Assembly: GCA_039819865.1 (NCBI GenBank)
Contig: JBCBRF010000025.1
Span: 4,333-28,332 of the forward strand
Direction: 5' to 3'
Source of the DNA: Pseudomonadota bacterium
GTDB taxonomy: Bacteria; Pseudomonadota; Alphaproteobacteria; Rhodobacterales; Rhodobacteraceae
Length of the DNA stretch: 24,000 bases
Shown: one piece after another, positions 871 to 22,019 of the stretch
Layout: the number at the start of each line of letters is the position of its first letter
Position numbering within the stretch: the stretch's first letter is position 1
The notes under the pieces: generated by a model
What the model was told of the DNA's origin: nothing
The model's input: the letters and a program-made list of their open reading frames with translations, nothing else
The model's database searches: none
Made by a program: the position numbers and the translations under genes

Positions 871-1902
871 TCAGGCGGCGCCGGCGATGGGTTGGTCGGC
901 GTCGCTCTTGGCGGCGTCGCCCTCACGGCGGAGGACGGCGAGGATCGGCGGCGCGTCGGCGGACGCGCCGGCGGAGACGAGCGCCTGGCGGGCCTCGGCG
1001 ACGCGGCGGAGCAGCGTCTGCGCTTCGCCGAGCGTCCGGGTCAAGGCGGCCGAGGCCGCGCCCGCGACATCCGGATGAGCGCGCTTCACCGCGGCGCGGT
1101 AGGCCGCGCGCACCGCATCCACGCCCTCCGACGCGCGGACGCCCAGGGTCTGCTCGGCGGCGGAGACGGCGGCCGGGTCGGGACGGTCGAAGGCGATGCT
1201 GGCGAAGGAGCTGGCGGGCGCCGGGCCGATCATGCGGATCGCGAGCGCGCCCTCCCACTCCGCGTCGAAGCCCTCGAGCGCGGCCTCGAGCGCGGCGTCG
1301 CCGCCGCGACCGGTCAGCGCGACCACGTTCAGGATGGTCTCATCGTCGCCCTCCGGCAGACGGGCGAGGTCGACGGCGGCGGGCGCGAGGTCGAGCGCGT
1401 AGCGCGCCGCGAGGCGGGCGCGCTCGGCCTCGGAGGCCTCCTGCAGGATCCGCCCGGCGCCCGCGCGGTCGCCATCGGAGGCCGCCGCTCGCGCCGCGCC
1501 CCAAGCGGGATAGCGGGAGAGGCGCTGCAGCATCGCCTTCACCGGCGCTTTGATCAGGAGCTGGTGCTGCTCGAGATCGCCGTATTCGGACAGGCCCTCG
1601 GACAGCATCGAAGCGTTTGCGGCGAGGAAGCCCTGGAGCGCGCCGAAATCGGCCAGATCCGCGCCCGGCGCGGCCGGCAGGAGCGGCGCGACGGCGTGGG
1701 CGGCCTCGAGCGCGGCCTGGGTCTCGACCAAGGCTTTGCCGATCGCCTTGCGGGTCCGCCAGAAGCCGCCCTTGGCGGTCGGCAGGGCGAGCGCGGCGAG
1801 GCCGCGGGCGACCGCGATGTGGGCGTCGGAGCGCTCCAGCGCGGCCGAGGCCGCCACAGCGTCGGTTTCCGCCGTCACCGCCAGAAGGGTCAGGGCCGTC
1901 AT
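871..1902 (-). CDS. GvpL/GvpF-family gas vesicle protein with a C-terminal J-domain-like extension (HPD motif)
   Basis: 343-aa ORF. Residues 1-240 have the GvpF/L layout (HQLLIKAP strand, ALAIRMIGPAPASSFASI = GPxPxxxF C-terminal motif). Residues about 247-305 read AEQTLGVRASEGVDAVRAAYRAAVKRAHPDVAG..LTRTLGEAQTLL, which matches the J-domain pattern LGV..x..I..AYR.....HPD......eA...L. The HPD codons are at 1069-1077. The ATG at 1902 overlaps the upstream TGA (ATGA at 1899-1902), and GAGGAG lies upstream. Confidence 0.85.
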   Translation of the reverse strand: MTALTLLAVTAETDAVAASAALERSDAHIAVARGLAALALPTAKGGFWRTRKAIGKALVETQAALEAAHAVAPLLPAAPGADLADFGALQGFLAANASMLSEGLSEYGDLEQHQLLIKAPVKAMLQRLSRYPAWGAARAAASDGDRAGAGRILQEASEAERARLAARYALDLAPAAVDLARLPEGDDETILNVVALTGRGGDAALEAALEGFDAEWEGALAIRMIGPAPASSFASIAFDRPDPAAVSAAEQTLGVRASEGVDAVRAAYRAAVKRAHPDVAGAASAALTRTLGEAQTLLRRVAEARQALVSAGASADAPPILAVLRREGDAAKSDADQPIAGAA

Positions 1903-4187: not shown

Positions 4188-4360
4188 CAGGCGCTCCTGC
4201 GGATCCCGGCGTGAGCGCGGCCGTCCTGCTCCAGCGCGCGGGCGCGGAGACCGCGGCGGCCAAAGCGGCGGCGGGACCAGAACACGGCGACGCGGGCGTC
4301 CTCGACGACGCGACGGCGGGCGACCCGACGGGTCGGTTTTCGAGCGGCGATGATCTTCAT
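4187..4360 (-). CDS. Small Arg-rich hypothetical protein (57 aa), translationally coupled to the AAA+ ATPase. It is below the ORF-track size cutoff.
   Basis: Manual translation from ATG at 4360-4358: MKIIAARKPTRRVARRRVVEDARVAVFWSRRRFGRRGLRARALEQDGRAHAGIRRSA*. The stop TGA (4189-4187) shares one base with the ATPase ATG (4187-4185). Third positions are mostly G/C. AAGGGA lies about 11 nt upstream. No family recognised. Confidence 0.4.
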   Translation of the reverse strand: MKIIAARKPTRRVARRRVVEDARVAVFWSRRRFGRRGLRARALEQDGRAHAGIRRSA

Positions 4361-4507
4361 GGGGTTGAGCGTCCCTTGCCTGTATTGCGGCCTTTGGTTT
4401 TTCGGCCGTTTTTGTTTGGTCTCTGCAGTCGGGTCGTCGCGCCGGTTCGCCCGGTCTTTTTTGGTTTTTTTGTCGTTTGGTCGTCGGGTCGTTCGTTCAG
4501 GCCCGCC
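4361..4507 (-). promoter_or_regulatory. Unusually A-rich (on the transcript strand) 147-bp intra-operon spacer made of an imperfect duplication. Possible internal promoter, RNA processing site or RNA element.
   Basis: This is one of the few low-GC stretches on the gvp side. There is a 10-bp direct repeat GTCGGGTCGT at 4427-4436 and 4483-4492. Each copy is preceded by GTTTGGTC and by T-runs (tttggtttttcggccgtttttgtttggtc versus ttttttggtttttttgtcgtttggtc). On the minus strand this gives repeated ACCAAA/GACCAAAC motifs. The minus strand has no ATG or GTG here. Confidence 0.45.
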
Positions 4508-4756
4508 TCAGCCGGCGCGGCCCTGCCTCTGGATGTCGCGGAGCCGGGTGAGGAGCTTCAGCTCCGCCTCCTCATATTCCTCCTCCGAGATCTCGCCGGC
4601 GTCGAGCATTTGCTCGAGGACCAGGATCTGACGCTTGATCTCGGCGGGGTCGTTCATCTGCTCGAGCGCGTGGTCGTGGATCTTCCGTCCGATCCACAGC
4701 GCGGTGTGGAGCGGGGCCGTGATCGGCAGGGTCAGAAGCGTTGAGAGCAGGCCCAT
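4508..4756 (-). CDS. gvpG: Gas vesicle protein GvpG
   Basis: 82 aa: MGLLSTLLTLPITAPLHTALWIGRKIHDHALEQMNDPAEIKRQILVLEQMLDAGEISEEEYEEAELKLLTRL. It has the hydrophobic N-terminus plus the GEISEEEYEE helix characteristic of GvpG. GAAGGAG SD upstream. Confidence 0.9.
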   Translation of the reverse strand: MGLLSTLLTLPITAPLHTALWIGRKIHDHALEQMNDPAEIKRQILVLEQMLDAGEISEEEYEEAELKLLTRLRDIQRQGRAG

Positions 4757-4782
4757 GGCGGGCTCCTTCGATGGGGCGGGGT

Positions 4783-5637
4783 TCAGCCCGCGAGGGCGGC
4801 GGGCTCGACCGCGTTGGGGGCGGCCCAGGCGAGCTGGAGCGAGACGAAGCTGTAGGCCGGGCCTGGCCCGACGATCTTCACCGTCAGGCGCCCCGGCGCC
4901 TCGGCCTCGACGGCCTCGAGCGCGGCGACGAGATCGGCCTGGGCGACGCGGTCGAGCAGGGCGTCGGCCTTCAGGACCATCATCTCATCCTCCGGCGCGC
5001 CGAAGGCGAGCGAGCGGGTCAGCGGTTCGAGGCGCTCGATCAGGCGGTGGCGCTCCTCGGTGCGCTTGGTCTCGAGCGCGGCGTCGACCTTCCGGCCGAG
5101 CTCGATGCGCTGGTAATGGGTCTCGGTCGCGGAGCGGGCGGCGAGGGCCTTGTAGGCGCTTTGCAGCTCGGGCCGGGCGGCCACGACCTCGCGCATCGCG
5201 GTCTCGCGGTCCCAGGAGACCTTGATCCCGCACTCGACGGCGCCGGCCAAATCGTCGAGGGCGGCCAACAGGGGATCCTCGTTGGCGGCGATGGTGGCGC
5301 GGATGCGGTCGACCTCCGCCGTGATCAGGCCGAAGCGCATCGGCAGAACGTCGGCGCGGGCCATCAGGGTCTCGAGCGCCTTGGCGTGGCCGAGCATGTT
5401 GCGCCGCGTGGAGAGCACCTCGTCGACGTCGATCGGGCTCGCGATGACGGTGAGCGGGCCGCACGCGACCAGAAAGGGCTCGTCGCCGGGGGCGGAGACC
5501 GGCTTGAACGCCAGATCGAGATCGGCGCCGGCGCGGGCGACGGCGTAGATGTAGACGTTGCCCTCCGCGCCGGGTTCGACGGCCTGGACGGCGGGCGGGG
5601 TCGCGGTGTCGGTCTCGATCTCGGTATTGGCGGTCAT
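4783..5637 (-). CDS. gvpF: Gas vesicle protein GvpF (GvpL/GvpF family)
   Basis: 284 aa: VYIYAVARA..., VLPMRFGLI, ECGIKVSWD, RLTVKIVGPGPAYSFV. These are canonical GvpF/L motifs. Sits immediately upstream of gvpG. Confidence 0.92.
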   Translation of the reverse strand: MTANTEIETDTATPPAVQAVEPGAEGNVYIYAVARAGADLDLAFKPVSAPGDEPFLVACGPLTVIASPIDVDEVLSTRRNMLGHAKALETLMARADVLPMRFGLITAEVDRIRATIAANEDPLLAALDDLAGAVECGIKVSWDRETAMREVVAARPELQSAYKALAARSATETHYQRIELGRKVDAALETKRTEERHRLIERLEPLTRSLAFGAPEDEMMVLKADALLDRVAQADLVAALEAVEAEAPGRLTVKIVGPGPAYSFVSLQLAWAAPNAVEPAALAG

Positions 5638-5645
5638 CGGCGGCC

Positions 5646-6341
5646 TCAGAAGCGTTGATCGTAGGCGGGCGGCCGCTGCGCGTCGGCGCGGCGCGGGATG
5701 CGGATCTCGAGGATGCCGTTGATCAGGCGGGTCTCCGCCCGCTCGCGGACGGCGTCCTCGTCGATGTCGGCGGGCAGCCGCGCCTCGCCGCGGAACTTGC
5801 GCGCGCCGGCGGTCTCGATCGCGAGCATCGGGCCCTCGGCGCGGAGCACGACGTCGTCCGGCGCGACGCCCGGCAGTTCGACCACGGCGACCCAGGCGTC
5901 CGCCTCGTCATAGACGTCGAGGACGGCTTCGCGCACGCGCTCCGGCGCGGGGCCCTGCGCGACGCTTTCGCCGCGGTCCTTCAATTCAAAATCGTTCGCT
6001 CCGGAGGCGTCGTCCTGGTCGGGGCGGATCGGACGGGCGCGCACGCCCCAGGAGGCGGTCACGCCGCCTTTCGCCACCGCGTCGCCGTCGCGGGCGCGTT
6101 TCTCCAACTCGCCGGCCAGGGTGTGGAGCGCGCCCGCGAGGCCGCCCGCCACGCCTTGCGCGGCGGTCTGCACGCTGTCGAACAACCCGCTCAGGCGCTG
6201 GCCGATTTCGTCGACGGCGGCCTGGCCCGTCAGGGTGTCGGCGCCCGAGCCGCCGGCGCCGGACGTCTCCGCGCCCGCGCTCGACCCGGCCGTTTTGTCG
6301 GCGTCGGAGGCGTCCGTTTGGTCGTCACGCGTATCGGTCAT
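5646..6341 (-). CDS. Hsp20/alpha-crystallin-domain protein (GvpH-like) with a disordered Gly/Ala/Asp-rich N-terminus
   Basis: 231 aa. The C-terminal portion VLDVYDEADAWVAVVELPGVAPDDVVLRAEGPMLAIE...RLINGILEIRIPRR fits the alpha-crystallin domain pattern (LPGV...NGVLEI.iP). AAGGAGAG SD upstream. Confidence 0.85.
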   Translation of the reverse strand: MTDTRDDQTDASDADKTAGSSAGAETSGAGGSGADTLTGQAAVDEIGQRLSGLFDSVQTAAQGVAGGLAGALHTLAGELEKRARDGDAVAKGGVTASWGVRARPIRPDQDDASGANDFELKDRGESVAQGPAPERVREAVLDVYDEADAWVAVVELPGVAPDDVVLRAEGPMLAIETAGARKFRGEARLPADIDEDAVRERAETRLINGILEIRIPRRADAQRPPAYDQRF

Positions 6342-6357
6342 GTCGGCTCTCCTTCGC

Positions 6358-6765
6358 TCAGACGCCGAGCTGCTGCAGGCGCTTTTCGAGGATCGCGAGG
6401 CGGCCGCGCAGCTCGCGGTTCTCCTGGGTCAGAACGGCGAGGCGGGCAGGGTCGACGGTCTCGATCGGCGCCGCGATCGGCGGGGCCGGCGGCTCCAGCC
6501 GCGGCGCGCCTTCGGCGCTTTCGAGCGACCCGTGGTGGAAGCCGGCGCCGCCGGTCAGCGAGGGATCGTGGGCCCACCAGTCGATGCCCATCTCGATCGC
6601 CTTATCGACCGTGGTGATCAGCAGCCGGAGCTTGACGCTCAGCAGCTCGATGCCGACCAGCGAGACCGTGACGTCGCCCGCGATCACGACGCCCTTGTCG
6701 AGCACCCGCTCGAGCACGTCGGCCAGGCTGTCGCTGTGGATCGGGCTGTGGATGGCGTGGGACAT
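6358..6765 (-). CDS. gvpJ: Gas vesicle protein GvpJ (GvpA/J/M family)
   Basis: 135 aa: SLADVLERVLDKGVVIAGDVTVSLVGIELLSVKLRLLITTVDKAIEMG is the GvpA/J core. The longer C-terminal extension is typical of GvpJ rather than GvpA. Confidence 0.9.
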   Translation of the reverse strand: MSHAIHSPIHSDSLADVLERVLDKGVVIAGDVTVSLVGIELLSVKLRLLITTVDKAIEMGIDWWAHDPSLTGGAGFHHGSLESAEGAPRLEPPAPPIAAPIETVDPARLAVLTQENRELRGRLAILEKRLQQLGV

Positions 6766-6789
6766 TGGGTCCTCTCACGCCGGCGCGGG

Positions 6790-7047
6790 TCAGGCGACGG
6801 CGTCGTTCTCGAAACGGGAATGCTTGCGCAGACGCCGGTAGCCGGTCAGGCCGCCCTCTGCGTCCAGCTCGTACTGGTAGGTGGTCAGCAGGTCGTCGTC
6901 GCCGAGGCGGGCCTTGCTCTCGAGCACGTCGACCTCGACGATCCAGCCGTCCTCGCGCTTTTCGCACCGAACGATGCTGTCGAAGGCCTGGCCGGTCATC
7001 TCGTCGGAGAGCTCGCGGGCGAGGCGGGTGACGTCGCGCAGATTCAT
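6790..7047 (-). CDS. gvpO: Gas vesicle protein GvpO
   Basis: 85 aa: ...EMTGQAFDSIVRCEKREDGWIVEVDVLESKARLGDDDLLTTYQYELDAEGGLTGYRRLRKHSR. This matches the GvpO pattern (DGW.v.vEv.E..R.p...D.l..Y.v.lD..G.l..YrR). Confidence 0.85.
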   Translation of the reverse strand: MNLRDVTRLARELSDEMTGQAFDSIVRCEKREDGWIVEVDVLESKARLGDDDLLTTYQYELDAEGGLTGYRRLRKHSRFENDAVA

Positions 7048-7062
7048 CGGATGGTCCTTTCG

Positions 7063-7314
7063 TCAGGAGCTGTGCGCCGCGCGGTCGTCAGCCGCCTGGA
7101 GCATCTGGTTGAGAAGCCGCACGCGGGCGGCGAGCACGTCGAGCTGGCGCTCCGCCTTCAGACGGCGCTGGTTGATCATGCCGAGGTCGCGCTCGATGCG
7201 GTCGCGCTCGTATTCGAGGCGGACCAGTTCCGCGGCGATCTCGGGCCGGGTCCGAGGCTTTCGCCGCGCGAGCGAGCTCGGACGGGTCGGCACATGGGGC
7301 ATGGTGCGCTTCAT
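7063..7314 (-). CDS. Small basic coiled-coil protein, possibly GvpV-like, translationally coupled to gvpN
   Basis: The track ORF 7063..7626 overlaps gvpN out of frame. The plausible start is the ATG at 7314-7312, which forms ATGA with the gvpN stop (7313-7311). Product is 83 aa: MKRTMPHVPTRPSSLARRKPRTRPEIAAELVRLEYERDRIERDLGMINQRRLKAERQLDVLAARVRLLNQML. A short basic N-terminus plus heptad coiled coil after gvpN resembles my recollection of GvpV, but this was not verified. Confidence 0.6.
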   Translation of the reverse strand: MKRTMPHVPTRPSSLARRKPRTRPEIAAELVRLEYERDRIERDLGMINQRRLKAERQLDVLAARVRLLNQMLQAADDRAAHSS

Positions 7315-8309
7315 GCGGCTTTCTCCGTCGGCGGCGCCGGGCAATGCTCGCGGATCGCGGCGCGCAGGCGCTCGAAGAACTTGCTGCGGGCGTCGGCGAC
7401 CGAGGCGACGTCGTCGCGATCGGAGGGCGCGCGGGACTCGAGCGCGTCGAAGCAGAGCTGGACGAAACGCTCGTCGGCGCAGTTCGGGCGCAGGCCCTGG
7501 TCGGCGGCGATGCGGGCGATCAGGATGGCGGTGCGCATCGAGGGCGGGGCGGCGCGGCCCATCAGGACGCCGTCGGCCTGCGCAGCGGCGCGGAGCGCGC
7601 GGACCAGCATCACGATCGGCCGGCAATGCTCGGGCGCGAGGCGGGAGCGGGCGGCGACGACGCCGAGCTCCGTTTCCGCGTCGAAGTACGAGAGATCGAA
7701 GGTGATCATCCGGTCGAGGAGCGCGTCCTGCGGCGCCTTGACCGCGGCGTATTCGGCCGGGTTCGAGGTGAAGATCGCGCGGAACTCGGGATGCGCCTCG
7801 ATCACCCGGCGCTCGCGGCCCGGGGTCGAGAGGACGAGCACGCCCTCTTCGAGCGCAGCGAGCAGCGGGTTGTTGGCTTCGGGCGGGGAGCGGGTGAACT
7901 CGTCATAGACGAGCGTGTAGCCCTCCTCCATCGCGACCGTGAGCGCACGGTCCTCCCAAAGCTTGGAGGTCGCGCTCTCGGTCTTCGTCACGTTGTGGAT
8001 GAAGCGGTCGTGGACCCGCTTGGTGCGCTCGCCCACCGCCTCGCCCACGAGATTGGCCCCGGTGAACCAGCCGTCGCCGGCGATCGTTACGGTGGGTCGA
8101 TCCAGAGCGGCCGCGAGCTGCATCGCGAGGGTCGTCTTGCCGGCGCCCGCGGGACCGCGGAAATGCACGGCGACCCCGGCGCGCAGATAGGCCAGCGCCC
8201 GGCTCTCGATCGAAGCGATCGCGGCGTCGCGGAACAGATCCGCACGGGGCTTCAGCCAGCGCGCATCGGCGCGGAGGCCTTCGGCTTGCGGCTTTTCGGC
8301 GGCGCTCAT
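7311..8309 (-). CDS. gvpN: Gas vesicle protein GvpN (AAA+/MoxR-like ATPase)
   Basis: 332 aa. Walker A is FRGPAGAGKTTLA and Walker B is TLVYDEFTRS. Also NPLLAALEEGVL, FRAIFTSNP and ALLDRM, which is the typical GvpN signature. Confidence 0.93.
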   Translation of the reverse strand: MSAAEKPQAEGLRADARWLKPRADLFRDAAIASIESRALAYLRAGVAVHFRGPAGAGKTTLAMQLAAALDRPTVTIAGDGWFTGANLVGEAVGERTKRVHDRFIHNVTKTESATSKLWEDRALTVAMEEGYTLVYDEFTRSPPEANNPLLAALEEGVLVLSTPGRERRVIEAHPEFRAIFTSNPAEYAAVKAPQDALLDRMITFDLSYFDAETELGVVAARSRLAPEHCRPIVMLVRALRAAAQADGVLMGRAAPPSMRTAILIARIAADQGLRPNCADERFVQLCFDALESRAPSDRDDVASVADARSKFFERLRAAIREHCPAPPTEKAA

Positions 8310-8456
8310 GGGTTCGAAGCCTCTTCGCTCTCGGTCGGTGCGGCGCGAGGACGCGCCTTCTCGCCATAAGCGTTAACGAGCGAGGCTTTCCCAAGTGTAA
8401 ACGCCCGGGAGGAAGATTTGGAATTTGGTGGGGATTGGGGCGCGCGCGCCGCGGCG

Positions 8457-8948
8457 TCAGGGCGCGGCGATATCGAACAGCCGCGCAAGGGCGGTCCGAT
8501 AGTCGTCCACCATGCCGAGCGCCTCGTCGAGATAGGCCTCCCAGCGCGCTTCGAGATCGGCGTCGGGGTTCGAGGGCTCGGCGATTGCGAGCGGCGTCGG
8601 GTCGTGGGCGGCGAGGGCGGCGCGGACGGCGTCCGCCGTCTCGGCGACGAAGGCCGCGTCGCAGCGGCGCAGGGCGCCCTCGCCCATCGGGCGACGGCCT
8701 CGCACGGCGGCGGCGATGCGTCGGTCGCTGGTCAGGATCAGATCCAGCTCATGCCAGAACGGCGCGTCGCGCCCGTCGCGGGTGTCGGCGGCGGCGACGA
8801 CGACGCCCTCGACACGGAGCGGCCGGAGGCCGTGGCGCGGCAGGAGCAGGGTGCGAAAAGGATCGCTCGGCGACGCCGTCTCGTCGCACGGTCCGCCCCG
8901 AACCGGGACGTGGTCCGGCGCGACGAGGATCTGCACGGAGAAGCTCAC
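8457..8948 (-). CDS. Hypothetical protein (about 163 aa) between the HhH-tail protein and gvpN
   Basis: The 5' part of track ORF 8457..9143 overlaps the upstream gene. A GTG at 8948-8946 lies 5 nt after the upstream stop (8954-8956), with AAAGG upstream. Product: VSFSVQILVAPDHVPVRGGPCDE...APFWHELDLILTSDRRIAAAV...LEARWEAYLDEALGMVDDYRTALARLFDIAAP. High GC3. No family recognised. Confidence 0.55.
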   Translation of the reverse strand: MSFSVQILVAPDHVPVRGGPCDETASPSDPFRTLLLPRHGLRPLRVEGVVVAAADTRDGRDAPFWHELDLILTSDRRIAAAVRGRRPMGEGALRRCDAAFVAETADAVRAALAAHDPTPLAIAEPSNPDADLEARWEAYLDEALGMVDDYRTALARLFDIAAP

Positions 8949-8953
8949 GACGC

Positions 8954-9865
8954 TCAGCCTTTCTTGGCGCTCGCGTCCGCGCTTTTGGCGGAGCCGGCGC
9001 CCTTGTCGGCGGATTGGGCGAAGGCGATCCAGCCTTCGAGATCGAGCAGCGCGCCGATTTCGCCGAGCTTTTCGCGGAGCGTCGCGGCGTCGGCGGCGGC
9101 GAGTTCTTCGAGGTTGGCGACGCCCGCCTCGCTCAGCATCCATTCGAGGCCCGGACCGGCGCCCGGCAGGCCGGCGAGGTCCACGACGACCTGGGGCTTC
9201 GCGGCGCGGCGCGCGCGGGGCTTTTTCGGCGCGACGCGCTTTGGCGTGGCGGGTTTCGAGGCGGCGGGTTTGGAGGCGACCTGCTCGGGCTCGGCGGGCT
9301 TCGTGGCGACGCGCTTCGCGCGGGCCGGCTTTTCCACGGTGGCGTCGACCGCGGCCTCGGCCGGCTTGGCGGCGGCGCGCTTGCGGCGGCGCGGCGGCGC
9401 CGTCGTCTCGGCTTGCGCCTCGGATTGAGCGTTGGCCGCGTCCGCCTTGGCTTTGGCGCTTGCGGCGCGGGAACGGCGCTTTGCGGGCGCCCGACGCTGG
9501 GCGGCCGGCTCCGGAGCGGGCTCGGCCTCCGGAGCGGCATCCTGCGCAGGCTCAGCAAGGTTGTCGACGGCTTCGTCCACCGAGGCGTCCGTCTCCGGCG
9601 CGGTTCCGGCGGCCTCTTCCGCGAAAGCGCGGGCCGCGGCGGACGCGGACAGCGTCTCCTCCATCGCGCGACCGACGGTCTCAACAGCGGCGGTCGCGGT
9701 CTCGAACGCCGTCTCGACCAGATCGGCGGCGGCCTCGACGCCCGCATCCACGGCCGCGCCGCCGCGGCCCGGTCGGCGACGCGCCGCCCTCAGCTCCGCC
9801 AGCTTGGCGCGCGCTTCGCGGCGAACCTCTTGGACGCGAGACTTGTAAGAGGGGGCGTTGCTCAT
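8954..9865 (-). CDS. Ala/Pro/Lys/Glu-rich low-complexity protein with a C-terminal helix-hairpin-helix-like domain, immediately downstream of gvpA
   Basis: 303 aa. The N-terminal basic helix is MSNAPSYKSRVQEVRREARAKLAELRAARRR. The central part has KPA-type short repeats (AAKPAEAAV..ATKPAEPEQVASKPAASKPATPKRVAPKKP). The C-terminus VVDLAGLPGAGPGLEWMLSEAGVANLEELAAADAATL resembles the GIGPxLExxLxxxGI HhH module common in alphaproteobacteria. Codon usage is consistent with coding. Confidence 0.7.
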   Translation of the reverse strand: MSNAPSYKSRVQEVRREARAKLAELRAARRRPGRGGAAVDAGVEAAADLVETAFETATAAVETVGRAMEETLSASAAARAFAEEAAGTAPETDASVDEAVDNLAEPAQDAAPEAEPAPEPAAQRRAPAKRRSRAASAKAKADAANAQSEAQAETTAPPRRRKRAAAKPAEAAVDATVEKPARAKRVATKPAEPEQVASKPAASKPATPKRVAPKKPRARRAAKPQVVVDLAGLPGAGPGLEWMLSEAGVANLEELAAADAATLREKLGEIGALLDLEGWIAFAQSADKGAGSAKSADASAKKG

Positions 9866-9908
9866 GGCGTCGGACCGCTCGTAAATAAAAAACCCACAAA
9901 CGAATGCG

Positions 9909-9946
9909 CGGCGGCGGTCTGGACGCGTCGGCCCGCACCGCCGCCG
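9909..9946 (-). terminator. GC-rich hairpin just downstream of gvpA; putative partial terminator or attenuator
   Basis: A perfect 10-bp stem pairs CGGCGGCGGT (9909-9918) with ACCGCCGCCG (9937-9946), with an 18-nt loop. On the minus-strand transcript it is followed, after about 14 nt, by GGGUUUUUUAUUU (plus strand 9881-9893). Because the U-tract is spaced from the stem, this is not a textbook intrinsic terminator. Confidence 0.45.
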
Positions 9947-9951
9947 AACAA

Positions 9952-10164
9952 TTAGGCGGCCTGCGGATCGACCGTAAGGCCGATGGCCTCGGCGTATTTC
10001 AGCCAGGTCTCGACCGACGCGATGACCGCGCGAGCCTCGATCGCGATCAGCTCGATGCCGACCAGCGCGACGCGCACGAACGCGTCGATGACGACGCCTT
10101 TGTCCAGGATGCGGTCGACGACCTCGGCGAGGCTGCTCGACGCAACGCTTTTCTCAATAGCCAT
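9952..10164 (-). CDS. gvpA: Major gas vesicle structural protein GvpA
   Basis: [63 protein letters not shown] (70 aa) is near-canonical GvpA. The ATG at 10164 has a GAGGAA SD 7 nt upstream. The track ORF start at 10206 would add a non-conserved 14-aa extension. Confidence 0.95.
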
Positions 10165-10441
10165 GGGGTTTTCCTCAGAGCAGGGGCTGTTCACTCGCCG
10201 CGACAAATCCGCCGACGGCGTGCATGACCCTGCGTCGTGATCGTTAAGAAGTTGCTGAAGCTTGCGGCGAAAACACGCTGGATAATGAAGATTTTACTCT
10301 TTTTTTCGGCGCGAACAGACCGGTATTCGGGCGGCGCGCCGTATTTGTGAAAACGCGATTAACGCAATTCGTCCGTTGTTTGCTCTCCGTTAAGGGCCCG
10401 CGTGCGATGCGACGCTCCGACGCATTCGTTCGGAGCCGACC
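10165..10441. promoter_or_regulatory. Divergent gvpA / tal-pyp control region
   Basis: 277-bp intergenic stretch, locally AT-enriched (ggataatgaagattttactctttttttc). It contains a tandem direct 9-mer AACGCGATT/AACGCAATT (10352-10369), CGTTAA/TTAACG motifs at about 10242, 10357 and 10389, and a 7-bp hairpin GCTCCGA (10414-10420)/TCGGAGC (10430-10436) that includes the tal GGAG SD. The promoters themselves were not identifiable by eye. Confidence 0.6.
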
Positions 10442-12103
10442 ATGGGCCTGTCCCTCGCATCCCTCATCGACGAAACGACGCCCGAGACGGCGTCGCCGGC
10501 CCTCCTCGAGGATGGGTTAGGGCTGTCCGCCGCCGATACGGTGGCGCGGGGCGCGCGCATCATCGCCATCGGACCCGCGGCCTGGGAGCGGATCCGCGCG
10601 GCGCAGGCGCGGCTGGCGCGGGCGATCGCGGAACGGCGCGTCGTCTATGGCGTGACGACCGGTTTCGGGCCGCTCGCCGATCGGCTGGTGCGGCCCGAGG
10701 ATGTCGAGACGCTGCAGCGGAACCTAATCTACCACCTCGCCACCGGCGTCGGAGCGCCGCTGTCCTGGGAAGCGGCGCGCGCCACCGCGCTGGCGCGGCT
10801 CTGCTCCATCGCGCAGGGCTGGTCGGGGGCTTCGGACCCGATGGTCGAGGCCCTGGTCGCGCTGTTGAACTCCGACCTCGCGCCCTGGATCCCGGAGAAG
10901 GGCACGGTCGGGGCGAGCGGCGATCTGACGCCGCTCTCTCATCTTGCGCTGGCGCTTATGGGCGAGGGCGCGTTCATCGATCGCGCCGGGAACCGGATCG
11001 AGGGCGGCGCCGGGCTCGCGCGGATCGGCGTTCCGCCGTTGACGCTCGCCGCGCGCGACGGGCTCGCGCTGGTGAACGGCACGGCGGCGATGACCGGGAT
11101 CGCGGTGCTGAACGGCGCGCGCGCGGCGGCGCTGCTGGAGTGGGCCGAAGCGCTGACCGGCCTGCATGCGGAGCTCTTGCGCGGGCGCTCAGAGGCTTGG
11201 GACCCGGCGCTCTCGGCGGCGCGGCCGCATCCTGGGCAGGTCGCGGCGTCCGATCGGCTGCGCGCGCGGATCGAGGGCGCGCCTCGGATCGACGCGACGC
11301 GGGCGGCCGAGCGGATTCTGCCGCAAAGCGGCGACGCTCCGCCGCAAGACGCCACGCCGCTTCAAGACCCCTATTCGATCCGCTGCGCGCCGCAGATCCT
11401 CGGCGCCGCGCGGGACGCGCTCTCGTGGCATGACGCGGTGATCGAGCGGGAACTGAACAGCGCGTCGGACAATCCGATCTTCGCCGAGGACGCGGCGATC
11501 GCAGTCCATGGCGGCAACTTCATGGGGTGCCATGCGGCGCTGGCGTCGGACGCGCTCAAGAATGCGGTCGTGCTGACGGCGGTGCTTTCGGAGCGCCAGA
11601 TCGCGCGACTGACGGACGAGAAGCGCAATGGCGGGCTGCCGCCCTTCCTCAATCGCGGGCGCGTCGGGCTGGAGAGCGGCCTGATGGGCGCGCAGGTGAC
11701 GGCCAGCGCCCTGGTCGCGGAAATGCGGGCCTTCGGCGGGCCGGCCTCGACGCAGTCGATCTCGACCAACGGCGCGAACCAAGACGTCGTCAGCCTCGGC
11801 ACGATCGCGGCGCGCGGCTGCGCGGACATCCTCGAGGACGCGGCCCGCGTGCTGGCGATCCAGGCCATCGCCGTCGCGCAGGGCGCCGATATCGTCGGGC
11901 GCGAGGCGCTGTCGCCCGCCGGCGGCGCGCTCGCCGAGCGCATCCGAAGCGTCGTGGCCCCTTTGACGTCCGATCGTCCACTCCACGCGGACATTGAGCG
12001 GCTTTCACAGGAAATTGTAGAACAAACCGCCGGACAAGACTGCGAATTCTACAAAAATCCGACCCACGCCAGCCTAGGGAAGAATTCACACCAGGCTCGA
12101 TGA
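10442..12103 (+). CDS. tal: Tyrosine ammonia-lyase (aromatic amino acid lyase, MIO-dependent)
   Basis: 553 aa. The Ala-Ser-Gly MIO triad in GTVGASGDLTPLSHLA is at 10913-10921. Also VYGVTTGFGPLA, QDPYSIRC and NGANQDVVS. The selectivity-switch position reads NLIYHLATG (His98 at 10733-10735). This is the His-Leu state associated with tyrosine rather than phenylalanine specificity in Rhodobacter TAL. Sits next to pyp. Confidence 0.9.
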   Translation: MGLSLASLIDETTPETASPALLEDGLGLSAADTVARGARIIAIGPAAWERIRAAQARLARAIAERRVVYGVTTGFGPLADRLVRPEDVETLQRNLIYHLATGVGAPLSWEAARATALARLCSIAQGWSGASDPMVEALVALLNSDLAPWIPEKGTVGASGDLTPLSHLALALMGEGAFIDRAGNRIEGGAGLARIGVPPLTLAARDGLALVNGTAAMTGIAVLNGARAAALLEWAEALTGLHAELLRGRSEAWDPALSAARPHPGQVAASDRLRARIEGAPRIDATRAAERILPQSGDAPPQDATPLQDPYSIRCAPQILGAARDALSWHDAVIERELNSASDNPIFAEDAAIAVHGGNFMGCHAALASDALKNAVVLTAVLSERQIARLTDEKRNGGLPPFLNRGRVGLESGLMGAQVTASALVAEMRAFGGPASTQSISTNGANQDVVSLGTIAARGCADILEDAARVLAIQAIAVAQGADIVGREALSPAGGALAERIRSVVAPLTSDRPLHADIERLSQEIVEQTAGQDCEFYKNPTHASLGKNSHQAR

Positions 12104-12259
12104 CAAAACTTTCGAAAAAGCCGCCTCTTGGTAACCGCTTGTTTGGGCCTTTGGCCGATCTTGGGCGGAGCCGCAGCGAGACTTCGCGCCATTTGGGCAA
12201 AGACCCGCTGATGCATAGGTATTCGCCAGAATTACCAACAAAAGGAGCTTCGATCTGAG

Positions 12260-12655
12260 ATGGACGAACTCGGAACTTTGAAGAAGCACGCCGGACGCTA
12301 CGAGTTTTCCTTTCCGGAGCTCGAGCTGTGCGTGCGCGGCCCCTACGCCGAGTGGGTGCTGCAGGCGGCCGCCGAAATCATGGCCAAAGCGGAAAAGCTG
12401 CGCAGCGAAGGCCATCTCGACGAGCTCGAGATGCTGAAGGAGTTCGGCGAGGCCTCCGAGGTCGACGTCGACGCCGCGCAATTCGAGGCGAACGCCCGCT
12501 TCGAAGCGCTGCCGCAATGCGTCGTGTCGCTTGGAAGCCTCGACTACCGCTGGGTCGCCGGCGGCCAAGAAGACGACGCGGCGCCGATGACGCGCATCGT
12601 CGACATGTCCCTCACCCGCAACGACACCTTCCTCCGCGACGAACCGCAGGCCTGA
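12260..12655 (+). CDS. Hypothetical acidic protein (131 aa) immediately upstream of pyp
   Basis: MDELGTLKKHAGRYEFSFPELELCVRGPYAEWVLQAAAEIMAKAEKLRSEGHLDELEMLKEF...RIVDMSLTRNDTFLRDEPQA. Third-position GC is consistent with coding. AAGGAG lies about 12 nt upstream. The opposite-strand ORF 12086..13018 is a shadow frame. No family recognised. Confidence 0.65.
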   Translation: MDELGTLKKHAGRYEFSFPELELCVRGPYAEWVLQAAAEIMAKAEKLRSEGHLDELEMLKEFGEASEVDVDAAQFEANARFEALPQCVVSLGSLDYRWVAGGQEDDAAPMTRIVDMSLTRNDTFLRDEPQA

Positions 12656-12697
12656 GCGCCGCACGTCCGAAGCCATCAAAAGACGGAGATCTGAACC

Positions 12698-13072
12698 ATG
12701 GAAATCATCCCGTTCGGCGCCAACGACATCGACAACATCCTGCAGCGTGAGCCCCACCGGGCCGAGGCGCTGCCGTTCGGCGCGATCCTGCTGAGCCGTC
12801 AGGGCAAGATCCTGAAGTACAACGCCGCCGAGGGCCTGATCGCCGGCCGCAGCGCCGGCGACGTCATGGGCAAGGACTTCTTCAACCAGATCGCCCCGTG
12901 CGCCAAAGGCAAGCGGTTCCACGGCGAGTTCTTGAAGTTCGCCCAGACCGGCCAGGTCAACACGATGTTCGACTACACCTTCGAGTACAAGATGAAGCCG
13001 GTGAAGGTGCGGATCCACATGAAGTCGAACGCTGGCGGTGAGAACTGCTGGCTGTTCATCAAGCGCGCCTAA
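12698..13072 (+). CDS. pyp: Photoactive yellow protein (PAS-fold xanthopsin)
   Basis: 124 aa: MEIIPFGANDIDNIL...LPFGAILLSRQGKILKYNAAEGLIAGRS...FFNQIAPCAKGKRFHGEF...NTMFDYTFEYKM.PVKVRIHMK...WLFIKRA. It aligns along its whole length with Halorhodospira PYP. The chromophore Cys (Cys68, TGC at 12899-12901), Tyr41, Glu45 and Arg51 are conserved. The Thr50 equivalent is Ala. GGAGA SD 8 nt upstream. Confidence 0.97.
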   Translation: MEIIPFGANDIDNILQREPHRAEALPFGAILLSRQGKILKYNAAEGLIAGRSAGDVMGKDFFNQIAPCAKGKRFHGEFLKFAQTGQVNTMFDYTFEYKMKPVKVRIHMKSNAGGENCWLFIKRA

Positions 13073-13154: not shown

Positions 13155-13667
13155 ATGAACGCCTACGATATCGGCGCGCAGCAGCCCGTCGACCATCTCG
13201 ACGCCGGCGTCGAGCACATTCTGCGCCGCTCCGGCGCCCGCCCGGTCTCGTTCCGCGGCGTGCAGATCTGCTCGGCCATGAGCTACACCGTCGGCACGCC
13301 GCTCTGGTACGAGATCAACTTGTACCGTCTTCAGGATCAGAGCTTCGTCGTCGACGTCCGCATGTTCACGAAGTCGGACGAAGACAGCGACAAGTTCACC
13401 GTCCAGCACGTCGCGAGCTTCGATGAGGCGGTCAGCGCCCTGGAAGCGTACGATGCGGCCGCAGACGTCCGCGTGAACGTGGCGCTCGACGACCCGACCG
13501 CATCGCTCGCCGACCTGACCTTCCAGGCTCTGGCGGTGCGCGCGCGCGTCGAGGAGGCTCGCGCCCAGTATCGCGGCCTGGTCAGCCAGATCCTGTCGGA
13601 TCTCGAGCAGGTCAGCGTCGAGGCCGCCGGCGGCCAGCGCCTGGTCAGCCACGAGATGGTGGCCTGA
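13155..13667 (+). CDS. Hypothetical protein (170 aa) between pyp and the coumarate ligase
   Basis: The ATG at 13155 is preceded by a strong AAGGAGGA SD. The track ORF start at 13038 overlaps the pyp 3' end. Product: MNAYDIGAQQPVDHLDAGVEHILRRSGARPVSFRGVQICSAMSYTVGTPLWYEINLYRLQDQSFVVDVRMFTKSDEDSDKFTVQHV...RARVEEARAQYRGLVSQILSDLEQV. The stop is 2 nt before the ligase ATG. No family recognised. Confidence 0.7.
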   Translation: MNAYDIGAQQPVDHLDAGVEHILRRSGARPVSFRGVQICSAMSYTVGTPLWYEINLYRLQDQSFVVDVRMFTKSDEDSDKFTVQHVASFDEAVSALEAYDAAADVRVNVALDDPTASLADLTFQALAVRARVEEARAQYRGLVSQILSDLEQVSVEAAGGQRLVSHEMVA

Positions 13668-13669
13668 GC

Positions 13670-14839
13670 ATGCTCCGACGCGCCGAGATCGACCGGCTGG
13701 TCGCATCTCTTGTCGCAGATGAAATCGGCCGCGCGCGGAAGCGTGCGGTCGATTTCGCCGTTTGGGGGGCCTGGACCCCTGAGACCACGGTCGACGAGGA
13801 TGGGGTTGGCGCCGACAGCCTGACCCGGCTCGAGGTCGTGGCGCGCGTGAACGAGTTCTTTCACCTGCATGAGAGCGGCGTCGAGGACTATCTCCTGGTG
13901 CGCCGGACGCTCGGCGACTGGAGCGAGATCGTCGCCGAGGGGCTGAAACTGGCCGGCGAGCGGATCACCTTCCGCAGCTCCGGCAGCACCGGCGCGCCGA
14001 AGACGGCGACCCATTCGATGGCCGATCTGACAGCCGAGATCGATGCGGTCTGGGAGCGGATCGGCCCGCGCGGGCGGATCCTGAGCTGGACGCCGCCGCA
14101 TCATATCTACGGGTTCCTGTTCACCGCTCTGCTGGCGGCTCGACGCGACCGGCCGGTGGTCGAGATGCGCGCCAAGGCGCCGTCGCTGCGCGCCGTCGCG
14201 GATGGCGATCTGCTGGTCGCGACGCCGTTTCAATGGGCGCTCTGCCTGAAGGCGGGCGGCGTGGACGCCGAGGACGTCGTCGGATTGAGCGCCGCGGCGC
14301 CGGCCTCTGAGGACATCTGGTCGGGGGCCGCCTCGGCGGGGATCCGGTTGGTCGAGATTTACGGCTCGAGCGAGACCGCGGGCGTCGGCCTGCGCGAGGC
14401 GGGCGACGCGCCGTTCGAGCTGCTGCCGCGCTGGTCGCGCGGCCCAGGGGACGCACAGCTGCGCGATGCGGGCGGGGCCCTGATCGACGCGCCGGACGCG
14501 CTCGACTGGGAGGTGGATCGACGGTTTCGCCCGGCCGGACGGCGCGACGGCGTGGTCCAGGTGGGCGGCGTGAACGTCGATCCGGCGATGGTCCGCGCCG
14601 TGCTCCAGGACATTGATTGGGTCGAAGAGGCCGCCGTGCGCCTGGACGAGAACGGCGCGGACGGCGGCCGGCTGAAAGCGTTTCTCGCAACCCGCGGCGC
14701 ACCGCCTGAAGAAGAGGCGCTTCAGCGCGTCGTTCAGCATTGCGCCGAGCGACTGGAAGGGCCCGCGCGACCGGCGTCGTTCCGACTGGGGTCCGATCTC
14801 CCGCGAAACGCGATGGGCAAACTGGCCGACTGGACCTGA
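13670..14839 (+). CDS. pcl: p-Coumarate (4-hydroxycinnamate) ligase of the PYP chromophore pathway; short adenylate-forming enzyme with an N-terminal carrier-protein-like segment
   Basis: 389 aa. It has the AMP-binding P-loop SSGSTGAPK, plus IYGSSETAG and a terminal K in NAMGKL. The N-terminal 90 aa contain GVGADSLTRLEVVARVNEFF (Ser50 AGC at 13817-13819). The genetic context, tal-pyp-pcl, matches that described for Rhodobacter and Halorhodospira. Confidence 0.85.
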   Translation: MLRRAEIDRLVASLVADEIGRARKRAVDFAVWGAWTPETTVDEDGVGADSLTRLEVVARVNEFFHLHESGVEDYLLVRRTLGDWSEIVAEGLKLAGERITFRSSGSTGAPKTATHSMADLTAEIDAVWERIGPRGRILSWTPPHHIYGFLFTALLAARRDRPVVEMRAKAPSLRAVADGDLLVATPFQWALCLKAGGVDAEDVVGLSAAAPASEDIWSGAASAGIRLVEIYGSSETAGVGLREAGDAPFELLPRWSRGPGDAQLRDAGGALIDAPDALDWEVDRRFRPAGRRDGVVQVGGVNVDPAMVRAVLQDIDWVEEAAVRLDENGADGGRLKAFLATRGAPPEEEALQRVVQHCAERLEGPARPASFRLGSDLPRNAMGKLADWT

Positions 14840-14930: not shown

Positions 14931-15094
14931 CGCTCCTTTCCTGAGAAAACTCCAAGTTATCACACTATATTCTCATAAATTCCGCCCGTTTCAGAACGAT
15001 CTCATCGGAGAGTCTTTTCGAGTTTGTTTTTGTTTTCGCGAGAAGCTCCGGGCGCGATCCGGTTTTTCCGCACTCCTCTGCGAGAGTTCTTAAC

Positions 15095-17692
15095 GTGTCT
15101 GGTTTGAAGCAAGCGCTCGCGGCCTTCGGGCGACGCCTCAGTACGCTGTTGGGCGCGCAAATCTATCTCGCGGTCGCGGCGCCGTCGCTTTGCGCGATCC
15201 TCCTGGCGGCGCCGATGGCGCTCAGCCTGCGGGGGGACTACGATCGGGCCGACGCGCTGCTGACGGCCAGCGCCGCGATGGAGACCGCGGCGCGGCTCAG
15301 CCACTCGATGCAGGGGGAGCGCGCGTTGGCGAGCGGTCTGCTGAGCGGCGGCGATTTTGAAGAGGCGCTGGCGGAGCAACGAGCCGCGACGGACGCCGCG
15401 CTCGCCGCGTTTCGGGCCCGGATCGACGCGTCGACGGCCTCCGGCGCGGCGCTATCGGATTGGAGAGAAGGCGTCGCCGAGACCTTGGCGGGTCTGCCGG
15501 CGCTTCGCGACGCGGTCGTTCAGGGCGGGATCGACGCGCCCGCCGCGCAGGCGCGCTACACCGCGATCAGCCGCTCTCTGATCGACGGCGGAGATCTGGT
15601 GGTCGGTCTCGGCGCCCGCGCCGATCTCGCGACGGATCTCCAAGCGCTCTCGCACCTGCGCCTCGCAATCGATTTTGCGGATCTGGAACGGGCCGACGGG
15701 GCGATCGGGTTCTCGCGCGGGGGCTTCAACGCGGCGCTCTACAGCCGTCTGGAGAGCCGCGCCGCGATGCGGGCGGAGCTGTTCCGCAAGTTCGGCGCGA
15801 TCGCCGAGGCGGGCGAGGCGGCGCGCCTCGACGCGGTTCTCGCCGGAGAAAGCGCGGAGCGGCTCGGCGCGCTCCGCAAAATGGCGAAGAGCAATGTGAC
15901 GGGCTTCGGCTCGCTGTCGGTCGACGAGACGGCCTGGTTCGTCGCCGCGGGCGCTTTCATCGACGAGCTGGTCGCGCTCGAGGCGCGCCTTGGCGCGCGG
16001 GTGATCGCTGCGGCGGAGGCCAATCTCGCGCGGGCGTCGACCGCCTTTTGGGCGCTCATGACGGGCCTCACGGTCGCCTTCCTGCTCACCGGGGCGGCGT
16101 GCTGGTTCGTGCTGCGGCGCCTGCAGATCGATATGCGCGGGATCTCGACGGCGGTGCGACGGATCGCCGCCGGCGCCGCGGCGGTGACCGTGCCGGCGAC
16201 CGGACGCGGCGACGCGCTCGGCGCGATCGCGCGCTCGGTCGAACAGATCGCCTCCTCCGGCGCGGAGATGCGACGGGTCCGCGGCACGGTCGACGCGTTC
16301 AGCGGCGGCGTGGTCATCTTCGACGCGGCGGGCTCGGTGGCCTATGCGAACGAGCGGTTCGTCTCGATGAAGCAGCCGGAGATCGAGGGGACGGATCCGC
16401 TGTCGACCGCGACGCTCTGGTTCGAGCAAATGCGCAGCCCGCTGCAGGCGGCGCTCGGTTGCGAGATGGGCGCGATCGAGACCAAGGGCGGCTTCCGGTT
16501 CGAGGCGTTCGACCGGATCTTCGCGGGCTCGGCCCTGCCGATCGTGAACGACGAGGGAGAGCGGATCGGCGCCTCGCTTCTGATGTATGAGATCACGCTC
16601 GAGAACCGGGTCGAGGATCAGATCGATCAGCTGATCAACGAGTTCGCAGAGGGCAACCTTTATTATCGCGTGACCGCTCTCGACGAAGACGGGGCGGTCC
16701 GGAACAAGTTTCTGGCCAAGATCTCCAAGAGCCTGAACGGGCTGCTGAACGACATCGCAGGCTTGTTCGGCGACCTCGAAGGCGCGATCTCCGCCATGTC
16801 GGCGGGCGATCTGACCTTCAAGGTGGAAGGCGGGTACAAGGGCGATTTCGCCTCGCTCGCCGAGAACCTGAACAGCTCGATGGCCCATATCAGCCAGGTG
16901 ATCCGGGACATCAACGGCGTCACGGAGGATCTGCGGACCGCGGTGGCGGAGATCGCCGCCGACGCTCAAGAACTGGCGCAGGGCGCGGACAGCCAGCGGG
17001 CGGCGCTGGCCGACACGATGGGGTCGGTCGAGCAGATCAACGCGATCGTCGAGACCAACGTCTCGAATGTGCGCGAAGCCGGCGGGGTGGCGGCGGACGC
17101 GCGCTCCCGCGCGATGCGCGGCGGCGCCGTCGCGAGCGAGGCGGTGGCGGCGATGGGCCGGATCGAATCAAGCTCTCAGCAGATCTCCGAGATCGTCAAT
17201 GTGATCGACGCGATCGCGTTCCAGACGAACCTATTGGCGTTGAACGCCGCGGTCGAGGCGGCGCGCGCCGGCGAGGCGGGCAAGGGCTTCTCGGTCGTGG
17301 CGTCCGAGGTGCGGGCGCTCGCCCAGCGCTCGGCCGACGCCGCGCACGACATCAAGGGATTGATCGAGGCGAGCGCCGGGCATGTCTCGGACGGGGTGCG
17401 GCTGGTCGACCAGACCGGCGGATCGCTCAGCGAGATCGCCGAGGCGATCGAGGCGCTCTCGGGCACGATGGAGACGATCTCGGGGTCGGCGGAGGCGCAG
17501 GTCGACGGGCTCGGTCAGATCACCCAGGCGATCCAACGCACGGAGCGCATCACGGGCGACAACGCCAAAGCCGCTGAAGAGAGCGCAGTCCGGGCCAACC
17601 AGCTCGAGGCCTCCGCGGGCCGACTGGCTGAGCTGTCGGGATACTTCATGATCGCCGACGACCCGGACAGGGTCTCGTCTGAAGCCGCTTAG
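15095..17692 (+). CDS. Methyl-accepting chemotaxis protein with periplasmic NIT-like sensor, HAMP, cytoplasmic PAS, HAMP and MCP signalling domain
   Basis: 865 aa, GTG start. TM1 is at about residues 20-42. The NIT-type signature is [19 protein letters not shown]....[14 protein letters not shown]2 is [23 protein letters not shown]. The PAS-like stretch is [19 protein letters not shown]. The HAMP stretch is [27 protein letters not shown]. The highly conserved hairpin is [43 protein letters not shown]. Confidence 0.92.
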
Positions 17693-20618: not shown

Positions 20619-22019
20619 ATGGTGGCCATGTCGATCTCGTTCACTCACACGAAATCGATCGATTCCTCCGAGATCCGCAATCCGCGGGTCCTCGAGCTGT
20701 ATGGTCTGTGGAACTCGCACCGCCGCGACGGGCGGCCGCCGCGCGCCGCGAGCCTGCTGCCGGAGGCGCTCGCGCTCTGCGGCGGCGACCTGCTCCAGGT
20801 CGAGCTGGTCGATGGGATCGACCTGGTTTATCGGCGCTACGGGGCCAATCTGATCGCCGAGGAGGGCCGGGACCTCACCGGCGAGCGGGCGAGCGCGTTC
20901 GATGGGGCGCTGCGCCGGTTTCTGCGCGACTGGTACATGCGGGCGCTCGAAGATCAGGACGCGATCTACACGGTCCACCGGGCCGAGAGCGGAACGCGCT
21001 CGCTCAGCTGGGAGCGGCTGCTTCTGCCGCTCGAAGGCGACAACGGCGCGGTGGATCAGGTTCTCGTGCTCTGCCTGCCGATGCTGATGCGGCTCGAGCT
21101 GCTCAGCGGCGTGATCGAGAGCTCGCATTGCGGCGTGATGGCGCTCGAGGCGATCCGAAACGCGCGCGGGCGGGTCATCGATTTTCAGATCGTGCTGGCG
21201 AACCCGCAGGCGGACGAGATTCTCGGCGAAGCGCGCGGGGCGCTGGTGGACCAGCGGCTGCTGAAGAGGTTTCCGGAGAGCCGGGAAAGCGGTCTGTTCC
21301 ACTCGTTCGTCGCGATCGCGGAAGGCAGCCCGACGCTGGACTTGGTCTATCAGCGCGCGGAGCGCTGGCTGCGGATCTCCGCGGCGCGCACAGGGTTGGG
21401 GGTCACCCTCACCATGACGGACGTGACGTCGCTCAAGGAGCAGAACGCGGAGCTCGAAGCCCAGAAGCAGGAACTGGAGCGGGAGATCGCGCTCAGGACC
21501 GAGGCGGAGTACGAGTTGGTGCGGCTGGCGACGCTCGACGCGCTGACCGGGCTGCCGAACCGTCGCCATTTCTTCGACCGGGCGGAGCGCGAGCTGCTCC
21601 GCGCGGGGCGGTCAGGCGCGCCGCTCAGCCTGCTTTATATGGATGTCGACCACTTCAAGCAGGTGAACGACAGCTACGGGCATGCGGGCGGAGACGCCGT
21701 TTTGCAGATGGTCGCCGAGGCGCTCGGGGAGGCGGTGCGGCCTTACGATCTGGTCGGGCGGCTCGGCGGCGAGGAGTTCGCGATCCTGCTGCCCCAGGCC
21801 GACGCGGAGACCTCTCGGATGGTCGCGGAGCGGGTGCGGGGGGCGGTCGCGGCCGGAAGGCTCACGCATACGGACGGCCGCGAAATTCGGGTCACGATCT
21901 CGGGCGGCGCCGCGACGGCGCGGGCGGGCGAGACGCTCGAGCAGCTCGTCGCCCGCGCCGACGCCGCGCTTTACGAGGCGAAGCGCGCGGGGCGCGACCA
22001 GGTCAAGGACGCCGCCTGA
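20619..22019 (+). CDS. PAS/PAS-GGDEF diguanylate cyclase
   Basis: 466 aa. The N-terminal LELYGLWNSHRRDGRPPRAASLLPEAL is a PAS_5-type domain. A second PAS-like region is SHCGVMALEAIRNARGRVIDFQIV. A coiled coil follows, then LDALTGLPNRRHF, DVDHFKQVNDSYGHAGGD, the active-site GGEEF, and RADAALYEAKRAGRD. The exact start (ATG at 20619 or ATG at 20628) is uncertain because there is no clear SD. Confidence 0.9.
   Translation: MVAMSISFTHTKSIDSSEIRNPRVLELYGLWNSHRRDGRPPRAASLLPEALALCGGDLLQVELVDGIDLVYRRYGANLIAEEGRDLTGERASAFDGALRRFLRDWYMRALEDQDAIYTVHRAESGTRSLSWERLLLPLEGDNGAVDQVLVLCLPMLMRLELLSGVIESSHCGVMALEAIRNARGRVIDFQIVLANPQADEILGEARGALVDQRLLKRFPESRESGLFHSFVAIAEGSPTLDLVYQRAERWLRISAARTGLGVTLTMTDVTSLKEQNAELEAQKQELEREIALRTEAEYELVRLATLDALTGLPNRRHFFDRAERELLRAGRSGAPLSLLYMDVDHFKQVNDSYGHAGGDAVLQMVAEALGEAVRPYDLVGRLGGEEFAILLPQADAETSRMVAERVRGAVAAGRLTHTDGREIRVTISGGAATARAGETLEQLVARADAALYEAKRAGRDQVKDAA

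Follow-up and report, generated by a model that had tools for sequence, protein, structure and literature searches.

The window analysed here, that is, the whole 24,000-nucleotide stretch of DNA, encodes between tal and pyp a 131-aa acidic protein, ORF131, whose family is almost always tied to pyp, the gene for photoactive yellow protein (PYP); its linkage to one clade of PYPs is near-obligate. We think it highly likely that ORF131 is the orthologue of the PYP-binding protein (PBP) known from Rhodobacter capsulatus, and that it serves the stand-alone PYPs of this clade as first relay or as a sequestering partner. The original prediction, which proposed the frame as a candidate PYP partner, is supported by the linkage to pyp and by the in vitro binding published for the R. 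capsulatus protein that occupies the same position; the idea is right, but for one species, R. capsulatus, it had already been published. Coordinates of the features discussed are collected in Table 1.

Table 1. Features of the window, in order of position
Feature	Coordinates	Strand	Description
Gas-vesicle cluster	871..10206	-	Divergent, complete; Pfam matches
Cdc48-like double AAA+ ATPase	1899..4187	-	762 aa; between gvpG and gvpF/L with weak DnaJ-like match
ORF170-like paralogous domain	8595..8867	-	In gvp cluster; hmmsearch with ORF170-family HMM, E 3.8e-7
orf303	8954..9865	-	Beside gvpA; Ala/Pro/Glu-rich; helix-hairpin-helix-like C-terminus
tal	10442..12103	+	Aromatic amino-acid ammonia-lyase; PF00221 Lyase_aromatic, 503 bits
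AAGGAG	12242..12247	+	Shine-Dalgarno-like motif, 12 nt 5' of ORF131 ATG; read from sequence
ORF131	12260..12655	+	131-aa acidic protein; probable orthologue of R. capsulatus PBP (RCAP_rcc01067)
pyp	12698..13072	+	TIGR02373, 177 bits vs cutoff 143; 124 aa, pI 9.51
ORF170	13155..13667	+	Second conserved protein without family; 170 aa, between pyp and pcl
pcl	13670..14839	+	4-coumarate-CoA ligase; TIGR02372, 338.6 bits vs cutoff 334.7
Terminator-like hairpin	15048..15062	+	3' of pcl; consensus scan only
NIT-HAMP-MCP	15095..17692	+	Chemoreceptor, directly 3' of pcl
PAS-GGDEF	20619..22019	+	Diguanylate cyclase, ~6 kb downstream of pyp

ORF131 is a genuine gene under purifying selection. It was first described as a well-formed frame on the same strand as pyp, with coding-like GC3, an AAGGAG upstream and a net acidic composition, and each of these properties holds. 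Its ATG is the first start codon downstream of an in-frame stop in the ORF listing; GC at codon positions 1/2/3 is 0.70/0.40/0.85, against 70% for the window overall; and the protein contains 27 D+E vs 13 K+R (pI 4.41). The gap to pyp, given as 43 bp, is actually 42 nt, counted from the ORF131 stop to the pyp ATG. Length alone is little evidence here, because DNA of 70% GC yields spurious ORFs in abundance; long ones are frequent in the window, where dozens are listed. What carries ORF131 beyond chance are its 85 homologues, the low dN/dS against its relatives (0.03-0.19 in 13 pairs of related loci) and its kept position beside pyp. In 12 of the 13 pairs its dN/dS is lower than that of pcl, and in most pairs only that of pyp is lower still. 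A scan for sigma-70-like promoters found no site, a result that is uninformative for such a GC-rich genome. A consensus scan of the + strand from 9800 to 15200 returned two terminator-like hairpins, one 3' of pcl (Table 1) and one inside pcl at 13690-13703, and none between tal and pyp.

The neighbours named in the original prediction—tal, pyp and pcl—are confirmed by their family matches (PF00221, TIGR02373 and TIGR02372), the last two scoring above their cutoffs, and the chromophore residues of PYP are present. At the selectivity position of the tal product, within the motif NLIYHLATGVG, stands His-Leu, which we take to be the signature of a tyrosine-selective enzyme, as opposed to the Ser-His of HAL. 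The window thus has the features of a pyp chromophore operon, in the order tal-ORF131-pyp-ORF170-pcl, divergent from the gas-vesicle cluster.

A genome scan with the ORF131 family alignment gave 70 loci, all of them alphaproteobacterial. They include Rhodobacterales (Sulfitobacter, Yoonia, Roseicyclus, Rhodovulum, Rubrimonas and Neomegalonema) and also Caulobacterales/Parvularculaceae, Beijerinckiaceae, Bosea and Methylobacterium MAGs. In 66 of these 70 ORF131-anchored genomes, pyp lies directly 3' of the ORF131 homologue on the same strand, after a gap of 15-98 bp (median 28 bp). The four exceptions comprise one truncated locus, two partial copies and one homologue followed by a chemoreceptor fragment. 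Scanning from the other side, with PYP as the anchor, gave a similar picture: in metagenomes, an ORF131 homologue stands directly upstream in 44 of the 47 PYPs of the clade that have enough upstream sequence, and on long contigs it does so for 4/4 PYP homologues. Two distant PAS proteins in the metagenome scan (36% identity) lack an upstream ORF131. The co-occurrence with pyp on which the original prediction turned is therefore borne out, and the pairing spans >110 loci in the Rhodobacterales, Caulobacterales/Parvularculaceae and Hyphomicrobiales.

A few loci depart from this arrangement. Three metagenome pyp genes of the clade (L085, L086 and L119; 65-70% identity) have no ORF131 match upstream. 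In L085 and L086, ORF170 is also absent downstream, and a lone pyp lies beside an acidic, membrane-protein-like ORF; in L119 the downstream sequence is too short to judge ORF170. Conversely, in L029 (5977-8438) the ORF131 homologue is followed not by pyp but by a 127-aa MCP signalling-domain fragment and a 484-aa ORF that is CheW-like by eye; in L069 (6001-7232+), too, no pyp follows, and the spot is marked by a tblastn MCP match only. The L029 and L069 arrangements may reflect rearrangement, or may hint at a link to chemotaxis.

The 85 ORF131 homologues are full-length proteins of 130-148 aa, all annotated as hypothetical or unnamed apart from one that is misnamed. The family is small, narrow and alphaproteobacterial: when 1.84 billion representative proteins were searched with its profile, 35 clusters were retrieved, every one of them ORF131 family bar one chance motif match. 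That ORF131 could be assigned to no family stands. Pfam and NCBIfam searches gave no match, and a profile search of PDB sequences with the family gave noise only. Conserved positions include W32, E39, P85-Q86-C87, D95-Y96-W98, R112 and T119-R120; Cys87, in the PQC motif, is kept in at least 90% of members, and R112 together with a DMSLTRNDxFL motif makes up a conserved C-terminal tail.

An AF2 model of ORF131, built from an 84-sequence alignment, is confident (pLDDT 85.5, pTM 0.69). The model begins with three strands at the N-terminus; a long helical hairpin (residues 30-61 and 67-82) follows, and then two or three more strands. Residues 100-131 reach a pLDDT of only 54-68 despite the conservation of R112 and the DMSLTRNDxFL motif, which suggests a segment that might become ordered on a partner. 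Foldseek comparison of the model with the PDB found nothing significant at E <= 0.001. The best, weak similarity is to the HicB/UPF0150-like antitoxin fold (PDB 3k6q and 2yzt) and covers the three N-terminal strands plus a helix (probability 0.77-0.87, 40-53 residues, E > 1, TM-scores ~0.3). Membership of the HicB/UPF0150 family was considered and rejected: the match is partial, the sequences are not similar, and the surroundings contain no toxin gene.

The partner of stand-alone PYP had been described as a long-standing unknown; for the Rhodobacter-type clade this is no longer wholly so. Kim, Nakasone, Takakado, Yamazaki, Kamikubo and Terazima (2021, bioRxiv 10.1101/2021.06.01.446672; PCCP 23:17813) described PBP, the product of RCAP_rcc01067, which adjoins R. 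capsulatus pyp (RCAP_rcc01066). PBP is a dimeric protein of 142 aa and 16 kDa with a pI of 3.9 (9.4 for Rc-PYP) and an eps280 of 1.55e4, predicted by Jpred to have helices in its first half, then strands. Neither dark PYP nor the blue-light intermediates are bound by it; what it binds is pUV*, a UV-A product that lives ~28 h. Assembly yields first a heterotrimer and later pUV*2-PBP4, and under blue light the complex comes apart. PBP does not bind the PYP of H. halophila, whose genome has no PBP homologue; the Rc-PYP used in the study was functional without PBP. These binding results were obtained in vitro, for one species (all Kim et al. 2021).

Synteny and physical properties make it very probable, in our view, that PBP is a member of the ORF131 family. 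A gene map of R. capsulatus rebuilt from the locus-tag tables of two unrelated R. capsulatus papers places gvpN at rcc01051, gvpO at 01053, gvpJ at 01054, gvpG at 01057, gvpK at 01062, pcl at 01063, hypothetical genes at 01064 and 01065, pyp at 01066, a hypothetical gene at 01067, hutH (tal) at 01072, gvpA at 01073 and an MCP at 01075. Read in reverse, the order pcl-hyp-hyp-pyp-rcc01067 is that of the conserved cassette described below, ORF131-pyp-mid-ORF170-pcl, and so rcc01067 lies where ORF131 would be. Physical properties point the same way. In the ORF131 family, 142 aa is the most frequent length (26/84), the mass is ~16 kDa and the commonest eps280 15,470, and the order of helices in the first half and then strands is the one given by Jpred for PBP. 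The assignment of rcc01067 to the family is based on synteny, length (142 aa), mass (16 kDa), acidic pI, eps280 and helix/strand order; among the ORF131 homologues listed there is no R. capsulatus protein, and cluster look-ups showed none either. In the regA mutant, rcc01063-01067 all fall strongly, together with the gvp genes (RegA study of R. capsulatus), so transcripts of rcc01067 are made and are regulated along with those of pyp. We also considered whether rcc01067 could be one of the genes 3' of pyp, of the 'mid' or ORF170 type, and rejected this: pcl at 01063 and the two hypothetical genes put rcc01067 beyond pyp, and its helices-then-strands order and acidic pI are both ORF131-like. 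In ORF170-type proteins the helix/strand order is the opposite one, and these proteins either exceed members of the ORF131 family in size or are less acidic; the two families are unrelated by hhalign.

The window resembles the R. capsulatus arrangement. ORF131 adjoins a stand-alone pyp, here at 42 nt, and pcl lies beyond pyp, an order kept in 62/62 pcl-containing loci; and a small acidic protein (131 aa, pI 4.41, as against 142 aa for PBP) is paired with a basic PYP. This pairing of charge is general: in all 66 pairs, ORF131 has a pI of 4.3-5.0 vs 7.8-9.6 for PYP. PYP positions are numbered by comparison with H. halophila PYP; on this numbering, the paired PYPs, that of the window included, keep Y42, E46, R52, C69 and Y98, and Thr50 is mostly Ala. 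The PYPs of the clade are basic because of clade-wide K/R at positions 22, 35, 41, 71, 73, 74, 81 and 99, and those at 71, 73, 74 and 99, next to the chromophore-bearing Cys69, are invariant. Position 100 divides the 67 paired PYPs into two main types, 46 of them carrying Gly there and 17 Met. The window PYP has Met, and so differs from Rc-PYP, in which Gly replaces Met100. Absence of Met100 has been linked to the very long-lived binding state of Rc-PYP (Kim et al. 2021). Given this difference, the kinetics of the window PYP, and perhaps its wavelength logic, may not be those of Rc-PYP.

If ORF131 is indeed the PBP orthologue, the pair would most likely work as follows. ORF131 and PYP would be made from one transcript. 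Light would convert the basic PYP to a long-lived state—in R. capsulatus, through UV-A acting on the protonated 375-nm form, to give a ~28-h state that blue light resets. A surface of PYP exposed by light would then dock on acidic ORF131, largely electrostatically as Kim et al. proposed for PBP, presumably by way of the basic residues 71-74 and 99 around Cys69 on the one side and the acidic helices or the C-terminal motif of ORF131 on the other. Complexes of PYP1-PBP2, and then PYP2-PBP4, would form, and these hetero-oligomers would either relay a signal or sequester one of the partners. We infer that the window pair would behave like that of R. capsulatus, and that its output would concern gas vesicles.

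ORF131 is not the sole unrecognised gene of the operon: ORF170, missed earlier, is equally conserved. From locus to locus the conserved cassette reads ORF131-pyp-(mid)-ORF170-pcl, in the same order in all 62 loci that have pcl; across the 70 loci, ORF170 is present in 64 and pcl in 62. ORF170 has 18 homologues and no Pfam, NCBIfam or PDB-sequence relative. Its AF2 model (pLDDT 84.8) is a five-stranded sheet with a long C-terminal helix, and a fold search returned only weak Pur-alpha-like, coat-protein or WGR-like matches (E >= 0.04). The 'mid' gene, where present between pyp and ORF170, is an ORF170 paralogue. Loci carry one to three ORF170-family paralogues, and in most genomes ORF170 is joined by one or two further copies, namely 'mid' plus one that is divergent and upstream of ORF131 (in L053, for example, at 6801-7412 and 5096-5611(-)). 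A further paralogous domain lies in the gas-vesicle cluster of the window (Table 1).

That cluster comprises gvpA, orf303, gvpN, gvpO, gvpJ, an Hsp20-like gene, gvpF/L, gvpG, the Cdc48-like AAA ATPase and a second gvpF/L. Within 6 kb of the cassette, gvp genes occur in ~40 of the 70 loci, and tal in only 17. Other neighbours recur as well. Near the cassette, 37/70 loci keep the C-terminal part of orf303, and 11/70 have an MCP, and in R. capsulatus too (rcc01075). GGDEF proteins, of which the window has one, are described in the literature as recurrent PYP neighbours in other clades.

The frequency of gvp genes near the cassette, its divergence from the gvp cluster in the window, and the fall of rcc01067 with the gvp genes in the R. 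capsulatus regA mutant could be read in another way, with ORF131 a gas-vesicle accessory or regulatory protein that lies near pyp by way of gvp clusters and has no direct tie to PYP. We regard this as improbable. The gene that ORF131 tightly adjoins (15-98 bp) is pyp, not a gvp gene; the cassette also occurs without flanking gvp genes, as in L071, one of the four PYP-anchored contigs, which has none in its 4-kb flanks, and in ~10 of the 70 loci likewise; the profile search found the family nowhere beyond the pyp-linked set, though gvp clusters are widespread; and the activity published for PBP is PYP binding.

Slightly less probable again is a role in maturation, ORF131 being a chaperone or a p-coumaroyl transfer protein that helps pCL to load Cys69, possibly by way of Cys87. 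The rest of the cassette is biosynthetic (tal and pcl), and the conservation of Cys87 would suit such a role. Against it, the published account has TAL and pCL activities yielding p-coumaroyl-CoA, which reacts with apoPYP; the Rc-PYP studied was functional without PBP, which bound the photoproduct and not the dark state (Kim et al. 2021); and ORF131 matches no acyltransferase or thioesterase family or fold in the Pfam, NCBIfam, PDB-profile and Foldseek searches. Nor did the terms 'anti-partner' or 'chaperone', offered as alternatives in the original prediction, find support. Finally, that ORF131 is a chance, untranslated frame, one of the many long spurious ORFs expected in GC-rich DNA, is refuted by the conservation data—its codon-position GC, 85 full-length homologues, low dN/dS and confident AF2 fold—and its R. 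capsulatus counterpart is a transcribed gene whose product has been purified.

The reading of ORF131 as a PBP-type partner can be set beside systems that are already known. PBP and ORF131 lie alike beside pyp and away from pcl, and both are strongly acidic with a basic PYP partner; PBP and the ORF131 family are alike in length (~140 aa), mass and helix/strand order, and in their absence from Halorhodospira. The resemblance is one of synteny and physical properties, and the two loci also differ: the interval between pyp and pcl holds one ORF170-family gene in the window and two hypothetical genes in R. capsulatus. In the Halorhodospira halophila operon, pyp, pcl and tal are clustered, as in the window, but in a different order and without an ORF131 or ORF170 gene, and Hh-PYP is acidic whereas the PYPs of the window clade are basic. 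In its working, the PYP-PBP pair recalls PixD-PixE of Synechocystis, in which a single-domain BLUF photoreceptor and the small product of an adjacent gene form defined, light-switched hetero-oligomers. The proteins and the chromophore are unrelated to those of PYP-PBP, and the switch is opposite, light dissociating PixD-PixE and UV assembling PYP-PBP; the likeness is thus one of analogy and not of family.

In accounts of PYP, a textbook photoreceptor, the signalling chain still figures as a gap. What is new here is that linkage of ORF131 to one PYP clade is near-obligate and family-wide, that the protein has a structural model without known relative and a conserved tail motif, and that ORF170 and its paralogues form a second conserved family of the cassette. 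Because neither ORF131 nor ORF170 has a Pfam or NCBIfam model, both are invisible to neighbourhood surveys based on domains. The ORF131 family appears in neither of two recent comparative studies of pyp operons and their surroundings: the survey of 113 pyp operons by Dohmen et al. (2025) makes no mention of PBP or of any hypothetical family, and Xing et al. (2022) go no further than to cite Kim et al. The PBP-type partner probably extends beyond R. capsulatus, as the conserved companion of almost every Rhodobacter-type PYP, which would lend generality to the PBP result, and ~114 paired ORF131 and PYP sequences are available for modelling of the interface. The ORF170 family is the next candidate in the signalling chain. 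A speculative extension, which we hold only tentatively and think rather unlikely as it stands, is a conserved pathway, specific to alphaproteobacteria, that runs from PYP to PBP to the ORF170-family proteins, and in which a photochromic UV-A/blue signal might control gas-vesicle formation and hence buoyancy. If it were true, ORF131 and ORF170 would be two new families that define a complete small photoreceptor signalling module.
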